64,000 nt of DNA from Escherichia coli. GTDB lineage: Bacteria; Pseudomonadota; Gammaproteobacteria; Enterobacterales; Enterobacteriaceae. This document shows, in pieces, positions 2,468 through 64,000 of this stretch. The notes below the pieces were generated by a model. It searched no databases, was not told the DNA's origin, and was given only the letters and a program-made list of their open reading frames with translations. A program made the translations under genes and the position numbers. The DNA lies in assembly GCF_046105845.1 (NCBI RefSeq), contig NZ_CP151004.1. One strand, written 5' to 3'. Every line of letters starts with the position of its first letter. The first letter of the stretch is position 1.

Positions 2468-3706
2468 ATGGCTGACACTCGCCCTGAACGTCGCTTTACG
2501 CGCATTGATCGTCTCCCGCCCTACGTTTTTAATATTACCGCTGAACTGAAAATGGCTGCGCGTCGGCGCGGCGAAGATATTATCGATTTCAGTATGGGTA
2601 ACCCGGACGGTGCGACTCCGCCGCACATCGTCGAAAAATTATGTACGGTGGCCCAGCGCCCGGACACGCATGGTTACTCCACTTCACGCGGCATTCCGCG
2701 GCTACGTCGCGCCATTTCACGCTGGTATCAGGATCGCTACGACGTTGAAATCGACCCGGAATCAGAAGCCATCGTCACTATTGGTTCGAAAGAGGGACTG
2801 GCACATCTGATGCTGGCGACGCTGGATCATGGTGACACGGTGCTGGTGCCGAATCCAAGCTACCCCATTCATATTTATGGCGCGGTGATTGCCGGGGCGC
2901 AGGTACGCTCAGTGCCGCTGGTGGAAGGTGTCGATTTCTTCAATGAACTGGAGCGCGCCATTCGCGAAAGTTATCCGAAACCGAAGATGATGATCCTCGG
3001 CTTCCCGTCGAATCCAACCGCGCAATGCGTGGAGCTGGAGTTCTTCGAAAAGGTTGTGGCGCTGGCGAAACGCTACGATGTGCTGGTGGTCCATGACCTG
3101 GCCTATGCCGATATCGTCTACGATGGCTGGAAAGCGCCGTCAATCATGCAGGTGCCGGGTGCACGCGATGTGGCGGTCGAGTTCTTTACGCTGTCGAAAA
3201 GCTACAACATGGCGGGCTGGCGTATCGGCTTTATGGTTGGCAACAAAACGCTGGTCAGCGCGCTGGCACGTATTAAAAGCTATCACGATTACGGCACCTT
3301 TACGCCGTTGCAGGTGGCAGCGATTGCGGCGCTGGAGGGCGATCAACAGTGCGTGCGCGACATTGCTGAACAGTACAAACGCCGCCGTGATGTACTGGTA
3401 AAAGGGCTGCATGAAGCGGGCTGGATGGTCGAAATGCCGAAGGCTTCGATGTATGTCTGGGCGAAAATCCCGGAACCGTATGCTGCCATGGGCTCGCTGG
3501 AATTTGCCAAGAAGCTGCTGAACGAAGCGAAGGTCTGTGTCTCTCCGGGGATTGGCTTTGGCGACTACGGCGACACGCATGTTCGCTTTGCACTGATTGA
3601 AAACCGCGACCGTATTCGTCAGGCGATTCGTGGAATTAAAGCGATGTTCCGTGCCGATGGTTTACTACCCGCCAGCAGCAAACATATTCACGAAAATGCG
3701 GAATAA
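2468..3706 (+). CDS. alaC: glutamate-pyruvate aminotransferase (PLP-dependent class I aminotransferase)
   Basis: 412-aa ORF starting [21 protein letters not shown]; aminotransferase fold motifs; K-12 synteny. Confidence 0.9.
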
Positions 3707-24686: not shown

Positions 24687-25610
24687 ATGTCAGCCAAAGT
24701 ATGGGTTTTAGGGGATGCGGTCGTAGATCTCTTGCCAGAATCAGACGGGCGGCTACTGCCTTGTCCTGGCGGTGCGCCAGCTAACGTTGCGGTGGGAATC
24801 GCCAGATTAGGCGGAATAAGTGGGTTTATAGGTCGGGTGGGGGATGATCCTTTTGGTGCGTTAATGCAAAGAACGCTGCTAACTGAGGGTGTCGATATCA
24901 CGTATCTGAAGCAAGATGAATGGCACCGGACATCCACGGTGCTTGTCGATCTGAACGATCAAGGAGAACGTTCATTTACGTTTATGGTCCGCCCCAGTGC
25001 CGATCTTTTTTTAGAGACGACAGACTTGCCCTGCTGGCGACATGGCGAATGGTTACATCTCTGTTCAATTGCGTTGTCTGCCGAGCCTTCGCGTACCAGC
25101 GCATTTACAGCGATGACGGCGATCCGGCATGCCGGAGGTTTTGTCAGCTTCGATCCCAATATTCGTGAAGATCTATGGCAAGACGAGCATTTGCTCCGCT
25201 TGTGTTTGCGGCAGGCGCTACAACTGGCGGATGTCGTCAAGCTCTCGGAAGAAGAATGGCGACTTATCAGTGGAAAAACACAGAACGATCGGGATATATG
25301 CGCCCTGGCAAAAGAGTATGAGATCGCCATGCTGTTGGTGACTAAAGGTGCAGAAGGGGTGGTGGTCTGTTATCGAGGACAAGTTCACCATTTTGCTGGA
25401 ATGTCTGTGAATTGTGTCGATAGCACGGGGGCGGGAGATGCGTTCGTTGCCGGGTTACTCACAGGTCTGTCCTCTACGGGATTATCTACAGATGAAAGAG
25501 AAATGCGACAAATTATCGATCTCGCTCAACGTTGCGGAGCGCTTGCAGTAACAGCGAAAGGGGCAATGACAGCGCTGCCATGTCGACAAGAACTGGAAAG
25601 TGAGAAGTAA
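24687..25610 (+). CDS. cscK: fructokinase (PfkB/ribokinase family)
   Basis: 307-aa ORF with PfkB signatures (GGAPANVAVG, DSTGAGDAF). Confidence 0.9.
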   Translation: MSAKVWVLGDAVVDLLPESDGRLLPCPGGAPANVAVGIARLGGISGFIGRVGDDPFGALMQRTLLTEGVDITYLKQDEWHRTSTVLVDLNDQGERSFTFMVRPSADLFLETTDLPCWRHGEWLHLCSIALSAEPSRTSAFTAMTAIRHAGGFVSFDPNIREDLWQDEHLLRLCLRQALQLADVVKLSEEEWRLISGKTQNDRDICALAKEYEIAMLLVTKGAEGVVVCYRGQVHHFAGMSVNCVDSTGAGDAFVAGLLTGLSSTGLSTDEREMRQIIDLAQRCGALAVTAKGAMTALPCRQELESEK

Positions 25611-25671
25611 ACGGCGAGGCCGCTCTTATCTCTAAATAGGACATGAATTTTTTAACGACAGGCAGGTAATT

Positions 25672-26919
25672 ATGGCACTGAATATTCCATTCAGAAATGC
25701 GTACTATCGTTTTGCATCCAGTTACTCATTTCTCTTTTTTATTTCCTGGTCGCTGTGGTGGTCGTTATACGCTATTTGGCTGAAAGGACATCTAGGATTA
25801 ACAGGGACTGAATTAGGTACACTTTATTCGGTCAACCAGTTTACCAGCATTCTATTTATGATGTTCTACGGCATCGTTCAGGATAAACTCGGTCTGAAGA
25901 AACCGCTCATCTGGTGTATGAGTTTCATTCTGGTCTTGACCGGACCGTTTATGATTTACGTTTATGAACCGTTACTGCAAAGCAATTTTTCTGTAGGTCT
26001 AATTCTGGGGGCGCTCTTTTTTGGCCTGGGGTATCTGGCGGGATGCGGTTTGCTTGACAGCTTCACTGAAAAAATGGCGCGAAATTTTCATTTCGAATAT
26101 GGAACAGCGCGCGCCTGGGGATCTTTTGGCTATGCTATTGGCGCGTTCTTTGCCGGTATATTTTTTAGTATCAGTCCCCATATCAACTTCTGGTTGGTCT
26201 CGCTATTTGGCGCTGTATTTATGATGATCAACATGCGTTTTAAAGATAAGGATCACCAGTGCATAGCGGCGGATGCGGGAGGGGTAAAAAAAGAGGATTT
26301 TATCGCAGTTTTCAAGGATCGAAACTTCTGGGTTTTTGTCATATTTATTGTGGGGACGTGGTCTTTCTATAACATTTTTGATCAACAACTCTTTCCTGTC
26401 TTTTATGCAGGTTTATTCGAATCACACGATGTAGGAACGCGCCTGTATGGTTATCTCAACTCATTCCAGGTGGTACTCGAAGCGCTGTGCATGGCGATTA
26501 TTCCTTTCTTTGTGAATCGGGTAGGGCCAAAAAATGCATTACTTATCGGTGTTGTGATTATGGCGTTGCGTATCCTTTCCTGCGCGCTGTTCGTTAACCC
26601 CTGGATTATTTCATTAGTGAAGCTGTTACATGCCATTGAGGTTCCACTTTGTGTCATATCCGTCTTCAAATACAGCGTGGCAAACTTTGATAAGCGCCTG
26701 TCGTCGACGATCTTTCTGATTGGTTTTCAAATTGCCAGTTCGCTTGGGATTGTGCTGCTTTCAACGCCGACTGGGATACTCTTTGACCACGCAGGCTACC
26801 AGACAGTTTTCTTCGCAATTTCGGGTATTGTCTGCCTGATGTTGCTATTTGGCATTTTCTTCTTGAGTAAAAAACGCGAGCAAATAGTTATGGAAACGCC
26901 TGTACCTTCAGCAATATAG
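25672..26919 (+). CDS. cscB: sucrose:H+ symporter (MFS, LacY family)
   Basis: 415-aa 12-TM ORF, LacY-like. Confidence 0.9.
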   Translation: MALNIPFRNAYYRFASSYSFLFFISWSLWWSLYAIWLKGHLGLTGTELGTLYSVNQFTSILFMMFYGIVQDKLGLKKPLIWCMSFILVLTGPFMIYVYEPLLQSNFSVGLILGALFFGLGYLAGCGLLDSFTEKMARNFHFEYGTARAWGSFGYAIGAFFAGIFFSISPHINFWLVSLFGAVFMMINMRFKDKDHQCIAADAGGVKKEDFIAVFKDRNFWVFVIFIVGTWSFYNIFDQQLFPVFYAGLFESHDVGTRLYGYLNSFQVVLEALCMAIIPFFVNRVGPKNALLIGVVIMALRILSCALFVNPWIISLVKLLHAIEVPLCVISVFKYSVANFDKRLSSTIFLIGFQIASSLGIVLLSTPTGILFDHAGYQTVFFAISGIVCLMLLFGIFFLSKKREQIVMETPVPSAI

Positions 26920-27360
26920 ACGTAAACTTTTTCCGGTTGTTGTCGATATCTCCATATCCCTCAACCGGAAAATAGTAATACAAAAATGCTTAGCCCAACT
27001 AATAATCACCTAATCCAAACGCCTCATTCATGTTCTGGTACAGTCGCTCAAATGTACTCCGGATACGCGGTTCGCTGATTTCCAGGACATTGTCGTCATT
27101 CAGCGACCTGTCCCGAGTATCACGGGCCTGCGAATTCATCAAGGAATGCATTGCAGAGTGAAGTATCGAGTCACGCCATATTTCGCTATCAGGATTCTGT
27201 ATGATGGTTACATCGCCCGGCCCAGGGCTGTTTAGTCATCAGCGCTTTCTGACAGTGCTGAGATTTCAACCTGTTGCAGTAAAAATGAGTAGATATAGGG
27301 CAAGTGTGCTGCCAAACCCATCTTTTACGGGGTGAAGGTAGATATTGTTAGAAGGGTATC

Positions 27361-27375
27361 TGGTGTCCCCTGCAG
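27361..27375 (-). repeat. attR core: duplicated 3' end of tRNA-Arg (argW)
   Basis: TGGTGTCCCCTGCAG is the reverse complement of the argW acceptor 3' end CTGCAGGGGACACCA (recalled tRNA sequence). Confidence 0.7.
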
Positions 27376-27448
27376 ACATCTACTTGACGCGGCAGGGGAT
27401 TGATTGGAATGGTGTTTTTTGGATGTGAGAAATATTTTACCCGCTATT

Positions 27449-27649
27449 TTACCCATTGGCGCGGCTTAAGAGCTTATTTTTGAATTCACAATGGTCACGA
27501 TATAACCATCTTGCTCGCCCGTGGATAACTTTAGCTTTTGGCAGGTCGCCGGACTTAATCCGGTCATAGATGAAGGTTTTACCGAAGCCAGTATCGGCCA
27601 TGATGAATTTCAAATCAACCAGTGAATCAGGTTGTAGTTCGTGTTGCAT
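27449..27649 (-). CDS. torI: excisionase / recombination directionality factor (TorI family, winged helix)
   Basis: 66-aa product MQHELQPDSLVDLKFIMADTGFGKTFIYDRIKSGDLPKAKVIHGRARWLYRDHCEFKNKLLSRANG matches recalled K-12 KplE1 TorI; the ORF track gives a longer 27449..27664 version. Confidence 0.85.
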   Translation of the reverse strand: MQHELQPDSLVDLKFIMADTGFGKTFIYDRIKSGDLPKAKVIHGRARWLYRDHCEFKNKLLSRANG

Positions 27650-27706
27650 GAGTGCTATCTCCAAATAGGGAATCGAACCTGCAAATCAGGCAATAAAAAA
27701 CCGCCA

Positions 27707-27874
27707 TCAGGCGGCTTGATGTTCTTTCAGTTCTTCAATTCGAATATTGGTTACGTCTGCATGTGCTATCTGCGCCCATATCATCCAGTGGTCATAGCAG
27801 TCGTTGATGTTCTCTGCTTCGATAACTCTGTTGAATGGTTCTCCATTCCATTCACCTGTGACTCGGAAGTGCAT
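27707..27874 (-). CDS. small hypothetical prophage protein (55 aa)
   Basis: ORF MHFRVTGEWNGEPFNRVIEAENINDCYDHWMIWAQIAHADVTNIRIEELKEHQAA, below the ORF-track cut-off; followed on the minus strand by hairpin CCGCC-TGAT-GGCGG plus T-run. Confidence 0.4.
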   Translation of the reverse strand: MHFRVTGEWNGEPFNRVIEAENINDCYDHWMIWAQIAHADVTNIRIEELKEHQAA

Positions 27875-29070: not shown

Positions 29071-29516
29071 TGGTTGCCTCCTTTGCGAAGCTGGGCAGCA
29101 AAGTCACGGATAGTGTCATCAAGGTCTGGGCACAACAGATGGTCAGCAAACATCTCTACCCCCTGCGCCCGTACTTCAGCCAGGAAAGCATCGGTGGTTG
29201 GGGTTTCAGTAACATCATCTTCCCATTCGCCAAACTCCTCACGACAAAAGTCATTAAATTCCTTCTCAGATTGCTTAAGCGAGGTATTTTCTGCAGCCAT
29301 CTTCGCGCATTTAGCCTCAAGGTTATCAATCGTGATTCCAGCAGAACGACACTCCCGCAACGCCGTTTCCAGTTTTGATTCAAGCTCACCGAACTTACGC
29401 ACCAGATATTCAGCGTTTGTTTCGTTAACCTTTAAATCTCGTGGAAAGCATTTACCTTTCAGAAAACCATCCATCTCAATTAGTGACATTAGTTTCATTT
29501 CTTCCCACTCCGCCAC
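29067..29516 (-). CDS. hypothetical prophage early protein (Ea22-like N-terminal type)
   Basis: 149-aa ORF overlapping the next gene by 4 bp (ATGA). Confidence 0.5.
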
Positions 29517-59804: not shown

Positions 59805-62144
59805 ATGACAGATTCAATAAATGCCAATGTTGTGGTAAGCATGCCTTCGCAACTCTTCACTATGGCTCGTTCTTTTAAAGCCGTAGCCAATGGCAAAATT
59901 TATATCGGTAAAATTGACACGGACCCGGTAAATCCTGAAAACCAGATTCAGGTTTATGTGGAGAACGAAGACGGTTCTCACGTTCCTGTTTCGCAACCAA
60001 TAATCATTAACGCTGCTGGATATCCGGTATATAACGGACAGATTGCCAAATTCGTTACCGTGCAAGGCCATTCTATGGCTGTTTATGATGCGTATGGTTC
60101 GCAGCAGTTCTATTTTCCGAATGTGTTGAAGTACGACCCTGATCAGTTTTCCTTGTGGGCAAAGGGAAATTTCGAAATATCAGAATACAGTCGAATAATT
60201 GATGGCGATTTTGCGTCTGGATATACTATTACCAATAGAAAACAGGTCCTTAAATACACTGATGGACTTTATTACCAATGGCTTGGTTCCCTTCCGAAAA
60301 CTGTAGCGCCAACAGAAAATCCAAATCTTAATAGTCAATGGTTATGCGTCATGGATGGTTCTAATTTCAATGATGCGATCATGTGCAGTCGCTACATTCA
60401 TAGCGGAGTTGACTGCGCATCGGTAATAAATAAATTACAAATATTATCAGAATATAAAAGGGTTCCTCTAGATTTTAGAGGTATAGATGTGATCTCGTTT
60501 AGTGGTAGTGTGCAAATTGGCGACTGGTTTCATTGGATTGGTGCAGGGAAGTCAAGTACTACTATCAGACCAATCTCACTAACAAAGCAAGACGTTGAGA
60601 ATAATGGCTTTGGCTATTACTCTTGGTTCATCCGTAAGAACCCTGACAAGGATCTATATTTTGCGATGCTGCAGGATATTTGTTTTGATGGACAATACCA
60701 AGACGGTTACGAAATAAATAACATTGCGCCGCAGAAGATTATTCGCGCATTCTGCTGGCATTTCAATAACGGTGCCATTGGTCGCAATATTACTGCTTTA
60801 AGATGTCATTTCAAAAACTGCCCACATGAAGCATGGGAAGGATACACAACTAATGGTGGAATGATTGATGGTATTAATTATTTGTATTGTTCATCAGAGG
60901 GAACAGACCCAATGCTTACCGCTGTTGGATTCAATGCATTTAAGTGTATGAATGGCTCTATTGATTCACCTGGCGAATACGGTACATATACCATTAAAAA
61001 CATCTTCAGTTTCGGCAACACTGCTTTCGGCCATCGTACATTGAATGACTTTAAGAGAGGTTGCGAAAATTGGGTTATCGATGCATGCCAAACATTCGAC
61101 ATGAACGATTGCCATCACTCTACGGATGGTTCACGCCGTGGTGTATTCCTTGCTGGCAATATCGGAATTCAAACAGGAAAATCAAAAGCAACTAAAAATT
61201 TTCTTGAAATTCAAGGAGAGAATATTGATGTTCTTGGTGGAAAGTATGTTGCTGCAGCAACCAGTGTGGCTGGCTTGGCTGGTATATTCGTGACTAATTA
61301 CTCGTATCCTTCTGAGTCTACAGACTTCCAATCACAGCACATTCGAATTAAAAATGTCTATGTCGAAAGGGTAAACAATAATGCGGTACGCATTGTCAAT
61401 GGGTATGACATCAACGTTGAAGATATCACGGCTGTTAGCTGTAACGGTGTTGGTGTATCATTCGAATTTGTGCCTGGACTAATTAGCGGAATTGACAATC
61501 AAGAGATAAAACCAAGATTTAACTCTGTAGGTAAGATCATAACTAGTTCGTGTTCAGGTGAAGTGCTTGTAGACAATAACCAAGACGTATTTATCACTGC
61601 CAATAGCCAGAATACAGGAGGTGGTTTTCGTGTTGGAAGAAGTGATGCTGTCCATAGTACTAACCCTCTACCGATGCGTTCCATAGCTGGTCATATTCTA
61701 GCTAATCAGGATAGATTTTTTCAGTCTGTTATATCTATTGCGCCAGAGAAAACAGATGCAACTACAAAGCCTGTAGGTACGCCTTATGCATTCACTCTTA
61801 ACGATAAGAATACCGCATCAGTACAGAGTTTATTAGTGGCAACACTTCGAGTAGCTCAACGAAGCGCTGTCTATGTAAGACTATGGACGTTATCAGAAAC
61901 ATCAATATCATCGGCGGTCATTTTTCGCGAATTGGATTCTACAGGTAATTCGTTATCTAATACTGCAATAAAATTATTATCTGATAATTCGTGGCTTGAG
62001 CGTCAGGCAATATATCATGTTAAAAGATCAGAATGTGTAGCTGTAGAGGTTTTTCTTGCTCCTGCTTGTGATGAACGCATGGATATTTCCTTGACAGGAA
62101 CAACTAGTTTTGCTGATGTTAGAGTAAGTAATTATCCAATCTGA
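59805..62144 (+). CDS. tailspike protein (P22 gp9-type head-binding N-terminus plus divergent receptor-binding domain)
   Basis: 779-aa ORF; the first ~110 aa ([47 protein letters not shown]...[10 protein letters not shown]) match the recalled P22 tailspike N-terminus, the remainder does not. Confidence 0.85.
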
Positions 62145-62152
62145 AAAGGCGA

Positions 62153-62180
62153 GTCCACGCCCGCCTTTTTATTACCAACA
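62153..62180. terminator. bidirectional terminator between tailspike and acyltransferase genes
   Basis: GGCG-n6-CGCC hairpin flanked by an A-run and a T-run. Confidence 0.5.
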
Positions 62181-62203
62181 ACCATCTCATTTGTGAGGTG
62201 GTT

Positions 62204-63382
62204 TTACTGAAGTTTTCTTCTTGTGTATGTTAGTACATTAAATTTTTTAAACTTACTACACGGTGTCTCAATATATCTAAAACATAGCAATGATATAAGC
62301 GTGATAAACCCAGAGAGGATTATAATAATAGCTGAAAATACAAGGCTGTTAATTTGATTAACATAGCTAACCGGAAGTATTATTTTAAATGTTATAAAAA
62401 GTATAATGCCATGTAGAAGATACATGCTATATGTAGCTTCTCCAAAAACTTGACAGGTTTTTATCTTAAGAACTCCAAAAATATCGCATCCATTTGATAT
62501 CAGAATAAATGCAATACCACAGAGTGATATTGTTATTGGATTGTAAGGATTTGGAATTAAAAAACAAGTTACACATAAGATAACGATGACGAATAAGCTT
62601 GATAATATTTTATTGAAAGGCAAGCCGTTAGGCAGTTTGTGATTTATTTTTGCTGCCAGATAACCAAAAACAAATGATAAAATATGTATTTTTAATGATG
62701 GATAGAAAATAAAAGCAAATACACTCGCAATACTAAGAATTGTGTAAGTATTAAATTTGTCTCTTCTCATTATAAAAGCCATAAAAGGAAGAGATAAATA
62801 AAAAAACCATTCATAAACAAGTGACCACGGAACTCCGGCCATGATAAGCGACGTCTTGTGAAGACCGTTAACATCAGGCATTCCAAGGAAAGAAAAAGGA
62901 ACCCATCTCGCCATAGATATTATGAGATTGGCAATTCCTGTGTTAATTTTCCAATCAGAAACATAGAACACAATTATGAATAGTAGAGATAACGAAACCA
63001 GATACATAGGTGTTAGTCTCATTATTCTTGACCAAAATAAATCTTCCCAATTTACTGATTTATTCGAAATCAATTTCCCGAAGAACAAGAAGCCTGTAAT
63101 CATAAAAAAGAAAATAACAGCTATTTTTCCAATATTAGTATAAAATAACGAATCAGGATCAGACCAAACCCCAGTATGTATGTATTGCCACCAGAAACTG
63201 GAATGATGAAGGAAAACCATTAAAGCAAGAAATCCTCTAAGCCCATCAATTGATTCACTCCTTCCTTTGATAGGTGATAAGTGTGTTTCTGTGACAAATA
63301 TTCTTGCAACCGAAAGTGAAGTAATCACCGATAAAGAAGCAATTAAAAAGCCATTAAATCCGTCAAACATAGAAATCTCCAT
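62204..63382 (-). CDS. oac: integral-membrane acyltransferase (acyltransferase-3 family), probable O-antigen acetylase
   Basis: 392-aa polytopic ORF; very AT-rich; position between tailspike and integrase as recalled for Sf6 oac. Confidence 0.75.
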   Translation of the reverse strand: MEISMFDGFNGFLIASLSVITSLSVARIFVTETHLSPIKGRSESIDGLRGFLALMVFLHHSSFWWQYIHTGVWSDPDSLFYTNIGKIAVIFFFMITGFLFFGKLISNKSVNWEDLFWSRIMRLTPMYLVSLSLLFIIVFYVSDWKINTGIANLIISMARWVPFSFLGMPDVNGLHKTSLIMAGVPWSLVYEWFFYLSLPFMAFIMRRDKFNTYTILSIASVFAFIFYPSLKIHILSFVFGYLAAKINHKLPNGLPFNKILSSLFVIVILCVTCFLIPNPYNPITISLCGIAFILISNGCDIFGVLKIKTCQVFGEATYSMYLLHGIILFITFKIILPVSYVNQINSLVFSAIIIILSGFITLISLLCFRYIETPCSKFKKFNVLTYTRRKLQ

Positions 63383-63698
63383 TACCCCTGTGTTTTTTGT
63401 ACAATCAAAGATTTTGTGGGCACTAAGAAAATTAGTGTATATAAACCATGCTTAAATTGCATAAATATTGAATATGGCATCGATGGCTCACTATCCTTAC
63501 GTTATCAAAAAAATGTGTATACCGTGATTATGCTTGATAATTATTTGACCGCAGTGTTGTATAGTCTACTGCTTTCTAATCTACAAGCATCATGGCATAA
63601 ATCCAGTATCTAGAACTAATAAGATTAACAATTGGAGATCACAAGTGATTGGCTTAGTTCACTGAGCCATGCATTGTTACCCTCTGATTAAAGATTAA

Positions 63699-64000
63699 TT
63701 ACTCAGCCTTCCCATCAAGCCAGTCCGCCCACCACTGCATCATTTCTCTGCGCTTATCGAGATACTGAGCATGGTTGTAAATCCCGCGCACAGATCCGCC
63801 GTTGGCATGTGCCAGTTGCACTTCAATAGCATCAGCAGGCCATTCGTGCTCGTTCATAATCGTGCTGAATTCATGCCTGAATCCGTGACCGCTTTCCAGA
63901 CCTTCATAGCCGATTTGTTTGATCACAAGCAATACCGCGTTCTCGCAGATTGGCTTCTTCTTATCGTTACGCCCGGAAAAAACAAACTCTGATACTGGTT
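63699..64000 (-). CDS. intS: tyrosine integrase, C-terminal catalytic part (5' end outside window)
   Basis: Frame is open to the window edge; C-terminal catalytic motifs HGFRHEF and GIYNHAQY; at the prophage end opposite torI. Confidence 0.8.
   Translation of the reverse strand, partial: PVSEFVFSGRNDKKKPICENAVLLVIKQIGYEGLESGHGFRHEFSTIMNEHEWPADAIEVQLAHANGGSVRGIYNHAQYLDKRREMMQWWADWLDGKAE

Follow-up and report, generated by a model that had tools for sequence, protein, structure and literature searches.

Why should a prophage integrated in the 3′ end of a tRNA gene carry two separate copies of parts of that gene at one and the same end, with its excisionase gene between them? The question is raised by a 64,000-nucleotide (nt) stretch of Escherichia coli DNA from contig NZ_CP151004.1, hereafter the window, in which positions 27361-27700 are near-certainly the attR end of a full-length P22-like (Lederbergvirus, HK620/Sf6-related) prophage inserted in the 3′ end of argW. 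The module at this end is, also with near certainty, an IntS-TorI recombination module of the KplE1/HK620/Sf6 type; such modules are already known, and this one is another instance of a well-studied system. Our subject is a short copy of the argW T-arm, here called the T-arm box, that lies just in front of torI, the gene of the excisionase or recombination directionality factor (RDF). It is a conserved, non-random sequence, apparently undescribed as an element; it is not an attachment site, and apparently not merely a relic.

A conserved T-arm copy in front of torI

The copy at the prophage-host junction, TGGTGTCCCCTGCAG at 27361-27375, reproduces, as reverse complement, the final 15 nt of argW in an empty-site genome (L001), and this is its single match within the window. 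The other copy is an exact 16-mer, GGAATCGAACCTGCAA at 27669-27684, equal to argW nt 46-61. It lies on the same strand as the attachment core, 293 bp from it, and a search allowing up to two mismatches finds no other match in the window, for a chance expectation of 0.03. The original prediction had described a 17-nt match at 27666-27682, about 290 bp from the acceptor-end copy: the match and its distance stand, but the coordinates were 2 nt off and only 16 nt are exact, the first G being absent from argW. Both the 15-mer core and the T-arm 16-mer recur in K-12 KplE1, Sf6, HK620 and CUS-3, so neither match is absent from related attachment sites.

The distribution of the box was assessed in a survey in which species-representative genomes were searched with a TorI-family protein alignment and not with the motif, yielding 21 loci with upstream sequence. 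The pattern GTTCGATT(C/T)C(C/T) was found at −28/−29 from the start codon in 12 of these TorI-family loci, while 9 lack the box; one phage has it 26 nt upstream of the start codon, against 28-29 nt elsewhere. It precedes RDF genes whose products share 88% (Midgardsormr38), 51% (g341c/Emek) and 39% (phiEt88) protein identity, reading CCAAGTTCGATTCCC in the Salmonella phages g341c and Emek and CTAGGTTCGATTCCC in Erwinia phage phiEt88. In Erwinia phage Midgardsormr38 (L008, ~2795-2835) the box is doubled in tandem with a 16-nt period, as CAGGTTCGATTCCCGT CAGGTTCGATTCCCACC. Enterobacter sp. R1 (L231, ~2965-3000) reads TTTTTTATTGCC joined directly to CGGAGGAAATC ATG, which resembles a clean deletion of ~25 nt that removes the box and keeps the terminator and the Shine-Dalgarno sequence.

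Alignment of 14 box-bearing lineages (A5) gave a family core of CAGGTTCGATTCCC (27668-27681 in the window), with the box 3-6 nt upstream of the torI Shine-Dalgarno sequence, itself conserved as GGAGAT in the 14 lineages. Within the box, GTTCGATT is invariant and covers precisely G53 of the tRNA and the seven bases of its T-loop. Mean pairwise identity was 0.88 over the 14-nt box, 0.33 over the 22 nt upstream and 0.53 over the RDF coding sequence; the lineages were picked for having the box, which inflates the first of these values and has to be set against the reading developed below, while the count of 12 in 21 is unaffected. The flanking non-coding DNA has thus diverged to random levels, and the position of the box upstream of TorI-family genes is fixed across Enterobacterales. 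Loci from IMG/VR found with TorI are all 100% identical and are informative only on what lies upstream: among these E. coli prophages, two different terminators abut one and the same box-torI unit, which assigns the box to the torI module rather than the upstream gene. Overall, the box is very likely a selected, functional element of some kind.

A candidate control element and its rivals

What might such an element do? A scan of the region upstream of torI found no sigma-70-like promoter or hexamer pair, and an intrinsic terminator lies directly upstream, so torI expression depends on read-through, which makes it a plausible point of control. Sigma-54, sigma-32 and sigma-E consensus sequences and IHF and TorR boxes, compared by eye, gave lineage-specific partial matches only. 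The authors of the KplE1 study conclude that control of excision targets the RDF gene (PMC2951348), and we found no cis element for such control in that study or in PMC3509656. A conserved, tRNA-derived box on the ribosome-binding region of torI is a concrete candidate for this control point.

In the reading we favour, the box would descend from a copy of the argW T-arm that was retained by selection, and would act in cis on excisionase expression. More specifically, it may be an operator in the translation-initiation region of torI, bound by TorI and/or the integrase, and would act jointly with the upstream terminator to keep RDF synthesis low. PintS is known to be repressed by TorI as well as by IntS (PMC2951348). 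The TorI sites on attL, I1 to I5, are 8-mers containing GTTCG, GATCG or GTCCG (Panis et al. 2010, PMC2951348); the 8-mer GGTTCGAT in the box has the pentamer GTTCG and agrees with site I4, GGTTCGCT, at seven of eight positions, although the sites form an array in the P′ arm whereas the box is single and lies upstream of torI. With regard to the integrase, the box equals the attB half-site to the left of the putative crossover overlap, and every integrase of this group has to recognise this half-site, irrespective of its own arm-type sites (GGGTAAAA vs GGGCATAA).

Several observations weigh against this reading, in addition to the inflated box identity. GTTCG is always followed by A in the box and by C or T in the TorI sites, and ATTCC falls outside the TorI-site consensus. 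phiEt88 has GTAACC-type RDF sites at all five P′-arm positions but retains GGTTCGATTCCC as its box, so a pure RDF operator fails to explain all lineages. True core half-sites conserve TT.GAT (the real C half-sites have an invariant GT at −3/−2) and do not conserve the box-invariant, tRNA-specific G(−10), C(−7) and T(−3), so an integrase half-site does not fully explain the box either. Finally, with nine of 21 lineages lacking it, one by an apparent 25-nt deletion, the box is dispensable. On the sequence evidence, a torI operator bound by TorI and/or the integrase is a tentative proposal, rather less than evenly favoured, while the explanation as a whole, which joins the identity of the module, a selected box and the operator mechanism, we grade as evenly balanced, by way of compromise. 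In phiEt88 itself (L092, 2805-2925), GTAACC/GTTACC-type motifs occupy the five positions homologous to I1-I5 in place of GTTCG, which implies a changed DNA specificity of the RDF at 39% protein identity.

A bolder version of the operator, which we hold to be rather improbable, is a target-site mimic: the phage would have duplicated one half of its own attB, the T-arm half, into the ribosome-binding region of the excisionase gene. The reader of this mimic would be either the integrase, which is tied to the argW T-arm by its core-binding specificity, or a T-loop-recognising host factor. If so, it would link RDF synthesis to the recombination machinery, and it would explain why G53 and the T-loop stay invariant across Enterobacterales while the arm-type and RDF sites drift.

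Three other explanations compete with the operator, all three unlikely and none ahead of the others. The first is that the box is a dead relic, functionless, and left either by an ancestral attP with at least 30 nt of argW or by an argW fragment captured in aberrant excision. The 16-mer (nt 46-61) and the core (nt 61-75) do tile the tRNA 3′ end without a gap, and the edges kept of the tRNA copy differ by lineage, extending 5′ to TTGCAGG in E. coli and 3′ to ...CCTG in Pantoea L220, which fits decay, as does the absence of the box from nine lineages. A decaying sequence is nonetheless hard to reconcile with an 8-nt core that is invariant, and 11-13 nt that are nearly so, beside RDF identities of 39-50% and adjacent non-coding DNA at 0.33, or with a fixed position relative to the start codon. 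In addition, the real core already has a T-loop-derived half-site next to it, and the box is therefore not the missing half; the remainder of the 5′ untranslated region (UTR) bears no similarity to the tRNA acceptor tail (p > 0.3). The earlier suggestion of a relic of a past recombination event may hence describe the origin of the box but not its present state, given its fixed position and its conservation against a diverged flank. A larger version, in which the whole torI 5′-UTR is a degenerate tRNA 3′ end (GGGGACACCA turned into GGAGATAAAACCA), was rejected, as the alignment scores were no better than those of shuffled sequences (p 0.3-0.95).

Just as doubtful is a role for the fragment as spacer of a cII-activated, pI-type promoter starting downstream of the torI Shine-Dalgarno sequence, through which integrase would be made across attP, without excisionase, after infection. 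The HK620 record annotates a 'phage integration' promoter (1664-1702) and a cII site (1689-1701, TTGCCTGATTTGC) that cover the fragment, a proposed promoter beside or inside the RDF gene much as in lambda pI/cII control. Lambda pI lies inside xis, and the logic would be parallel. The first TTGC and the bases after it are also conserved in a subset of lineages (the E. coli phages, L217-L219 and L229). However, the repeat in TTGCCTGATTTGC is TTGC-N5-TTGC and not the canonical TTGC-N6-TTGC, and, unlike at lambda pI, it is not conserved: the second TTGC is TTCC or TTTC in L218, L219 and L229, and the repeat is absent from eight box-bearing lineages (g341c, phiEt88, Midgardsormr38, L220, L222-L224 and L234). 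A promoter spacer would not be expected to be the most conserved part, and the scan found no hexamer pair of sigma-70 type.

Equally improbable is an element acting at the RNA level in the torI leader, either as a T-loop mimic for a host T-arm factor or as a weak anti-Shine-Dalgarno sequence that damps translation. An invariant part made of G53 and seven T-loop bases is the pattern expected under T-loop recognition, and the box fits GUUCNANNC, which we take to be a TruB/Pus4-type motif; single-sequence folds of g341c, phiEt88 and L222 also pair the box with the Shine-Dalgarno region (AUUCC with GGAGAU). A conserved hairpin is nevertheless not supported: the RNAalifold consensus hairpin reaches only −0.5 kcal/mol with no compensatory pair, the leader of E. 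coli adopts another register, none of the fold z-scores is significant, and no T-stem can form in most lineages (2 bp only in E. coli). Nor did we find a known RNA family, as Rfam 15 returned nothing at gathering score; the best match, STnc130 (28 bits against a threshold of 55), was driven by the terminator, and five homologous loci matched no family. This weak match, at 27599-27726 on the plus strand and antisense to the torI start (E = 0.02-0.04), aligns mainly through the terminator and is probably due to chance. At the protein level, a coding role of the box as an in-frame GSIP extension was rejected, because in E. coli a TGA stop lies just before it and the frame is lost in 3 of 14 lineages.

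The T-arm copy and the attachment site

The attachment site does not include the 16-nt T-arm copy. A 135-bp attR supports excisive recombination in vitro (PMC3509656); its inner primer, attR-IHF2, ends at ~27472 in the window, ~200 bp before the T-arm repeat is reached. The notion of an extended att homology, put forward in the original prediction, fails on this ground, and the whole of torI and the arm-type sites intervene as well. The tiling of the 16-mer and the core does suggest a 30-nt tRNA copy that was split by torI, a reading against which the half-sites of related phages argue. On the core side, these are degenerate T-loops, namely TTCGATGTA or ATTCGATGTA followed by TGCAGGG, and CAGGTTAGATGTA followed by TGCAGGG in Klebsiella phage Chronis. 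Since the core already has its own decayed T-arm, the upstream fragment is an extra copy and not the core's split-off half. A clean insertion of torI and the P arm into a 30-nt argW copy was rejected for the same reason (TTCGATGTA, CAGGTTAGATGTA), and is further contradicted by Pantoea L220, where the identity of the box runs through ...CCTG and so overlaps the core segment.

The record of phage CUS-3 (CP000711) takes the opposite position, annotating TTGCAGGTTCGATTCC as the attL and attR core. This 16-mer is indeed a perfect direct repeat, present in the argW T-arm at attL and in the copy upstream of torI, and so at both annotated ends. Recombination there is still very improbable. In strain NU14, a prophage end 100% identical to CUS-3 continues past the repeat through torI and the 16-nt KplE1 core to dsdC; the CUS-3 record thus ends 293 bp before the true junction, with the repeat taken as the crossover and torI left outside. 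Moreover, CUS-3 is counted among the phages that share the KplE1 module (PMC2951348), the 135-bp in vitro attR does not contain the T-arm repeat (PMC3509656), and not one of 5,426 complete E. coli genomes contains the argW-box-torI junction expected if the repeat recombined. Loss of the prophage by recombination between the two 16-bp repeats was rejected on the same count. The omission of torI and the true attR can be located in the CUS-3 record (L006, 2693-2708; L007, 1-16) by comparison with its NU14 counterpart (L236, 1329-1529). The T-arm repeat is thus a trap for att-site annotation: used as the core, it cuts off torI and the real attR.

A chance match, for which it could be said that T-loop sequences are short and common in genomes, is effectively refuted by the expectation of 0.03 per window with up to two mismatches, by the shared strand and the 293-bp distance to the core of the same tRNA, and by the conservation of the box across genera.

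The recombination module and its surroundings

The split arrangement of this module is published for KplE1, HK620, Sf6, CUS-3 and Kapi1, with intS adjoining argW and torI at the far end (PMC2951348, PMC8787464). The annotations of Sf6 and HK620 agree, with the attP core at the same place, and they support the original prediction of a KplE1-type order in which attP lies between the two genes in the phage genome. On the phage circle the order would be terminator, T-arm box, torI, P arm, core, P′ arm and intS, so that integration would put intS beside argW (attL) and torI beside the displaced 15-nt tRNA end (attR). As claimed beforehand, the excisionase gene was found about 36 kb (measured, 36.2 kb) from the integrase gene, at the opposite junction and beside the 15-bp copy of the argW 3′ end. 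The features are collected in Table 1.

Table 1. Features of the attR end, the host flank and the integrase end of the prophage, in window coordinates.
Feature	Position	Strand	Basis or remark
cscK and cscB (sucrose genes)	24687-26919	+	host side of attR
50-residue DUF4942 remnant open reading frame (ORF)	26999-27151	-	in host flank
attR identity block (core)	27361-27375	-	sense strand CTGCAGGGGACACCA = argW nt 61-75
Inverted half-sites flanking the putative overlap	GACACC 27362-27367; GATGTC 27375-27380
Putative 7-bp overlap (crossover) TGCAGGG	27368-27374	-	sequence symmetry
GCAGGGG, inverted partner of CCCCTGC (27367-27373), in P arm	27392-27398	.	read from sequence
Two direct repeats TTTTACCC (putative arm-type sites)	27435-27442 and 27447-27454	-	sense strand GGGTAAAA
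torI, excisionase (RDF), 66 residues	27449-27649	-	PDB 1Z4H match
torI Shine-Dalgarno GGAG	27659-27662	-	9 nt upstream of ATG
T-arm box	27668-27684	-	sense strand TTGCAGGTTCGATTCC+C
Intrinsic terminator, hairpin and T-run	27698-27717	-	terminator scan; directly upstream of T-arm box
55-residue ORF of lambda-like module preceding the RDF gene	27707-27874	-	ORF list
intS 3′ part (integrase C-terminal ~100 residues)	63699-64000	-	gene runs off window end

Homology of the window with empty-site genomes stops exactly at 27375, where those genomes have tRNA-Arg, and phage DNA begins at 27376. The published KplE1 core is CTGCAGGGGACACCAT, 16 nt and duplicated (PMC2951348); 15 of its 16 nt are present at the junction, and the sixteenth is G in the window and T in K-12 because the host flank is of the csc type and not of the dsdC type. 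This flank leaves ~440 bp between cscB and the core. The csc genes and the DUF4942 remnant (24687-27360) occupy the host side of attR, the position of dsdC in K-12.

Within the core, TGCAGGG is invariant across 23 compared lineages, and the half-sites on its left and right covary, as GATGTC/GACACC in E. coli, GGTGTC/GACACC in g341c and GGCGTA/AACGCC in Edwardsiella, a pattern that points to TGCAGGG as the 7-bp overlap region. Most lineages also have the overlap sequence in inverted orientation, 16-23 nt upstream of the core, and in Edwardsiella both sides of the pair are altered together (TCCCTGCA/TGCAGGGA). In the window, this conserved inverted repeat reads CCCCTGC/GCAGGGG and encloses the C half-site in the P arm. 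The two TTTTACCC repeats, situated between torI and the core with the second overlapping the torI stop codon, may be integrase sites of the arm type in the P arm: HK620 has an annotated 'attP' repeat_region (1441-1463) homologous to this region, and GGGTAAA repeats also occur in the P′ arm of Sf6 and HK620.

The gene next to attR encodes a winged-helix RDF of the TorI type, matching the 'Tor inhibition protein' of PDB 1Z4H over residues 1-66 (E = 6.6e-43). The protein is 100% identical to K-12 TorI (PDB 1Z4H), HK620 HkaC and Sf6 gp18, and the matching gene in K-12 and other genomes is annotated torI in RefSeq (WP_001163428). The window and K-12 KplE1 (CPS-53) further share the core, the P-arm repeats, the T-arm 16-mer and the placement of intS at the argW end with torI opposite, the K-12 homology covering exactly 27361-27699. 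KplE1 differs in being a 10.2-kb remnant, compared with a full-length P22-like prophage of ~36 kb in the window, in its dsdC flank and 16-nt block (cscB/DUF4942 and a 15-nt identity block in the window), and in having no intrinsic terminator before torI. The attP regions of HK620 and Sf6 are 97-98% identical to the window over core, P arm, torI, box and terminator. Experiments with Kapi1 place attB at the argW 3′ end (PMC8787464). HK620, Sf6 and Kapi1 differ from the window in the neighbouring O-antigen modification genes and tailspike, and not in the module itself.

A phage that integrates into a tRNA gene carries the 3′ end of that gene in its attP, so that integration restores the gene. In the present module, too, the half-site beside the overlap is T-loop derived; what sets it apart from tRNA-gene attachment sites generally is the second, better-preserved T-arm copy 293 bp away, beyond the RDF gene. 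The literature that we searched contained no paper with the T-arm 16-mer and no description of such a second copy. Pseudomonas phages with AlpA-like RDFs (phi297, F116) were considered as a parallel and set aside as uninformative, as their int and alpA genes are adjacent.

Homology to lambda (29098-29171) begins at 27687, and the region of the 55-residue ORF has 96% DNA identity to lambda DNA just upstream of xis. A lambda-like module of ORF and terminator hence stands before the RDF gene in both phages, although lambda has int and xis next to each other, both to one side of attP; given the 96% identity, one small module precedes two unrelated excisionase genes. The ORF is outside the recombination module, and the terminator marks the mosaic boundary with the lambda-like module upstream.

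At the far end, the integrase fragment matches Pfam Phage_integrase (E = 6e-16) and is 96.8% identical at the DNA level to annotated intS. ARAGORN found no tRNA within the window; in a related genome, intS is followed ~160 bp on by tRNA-Arg and then by yfdC, and if the order is the same here, argW must lie ~1 kb past the window end. Over 42-57% of the query, the prophage body shows 96% identity to HK620 and Sf6. Positions 62900-64000 were covered to at least 80% at no place in the 5,426 complete E. coli genomes. Next to intS, at 59805-63382, are a tailspike with a P22 head-binding domain and an acyltransferase (Acyl_transf_3), probably a distinct module for O-antigen modification and receptor recognition.

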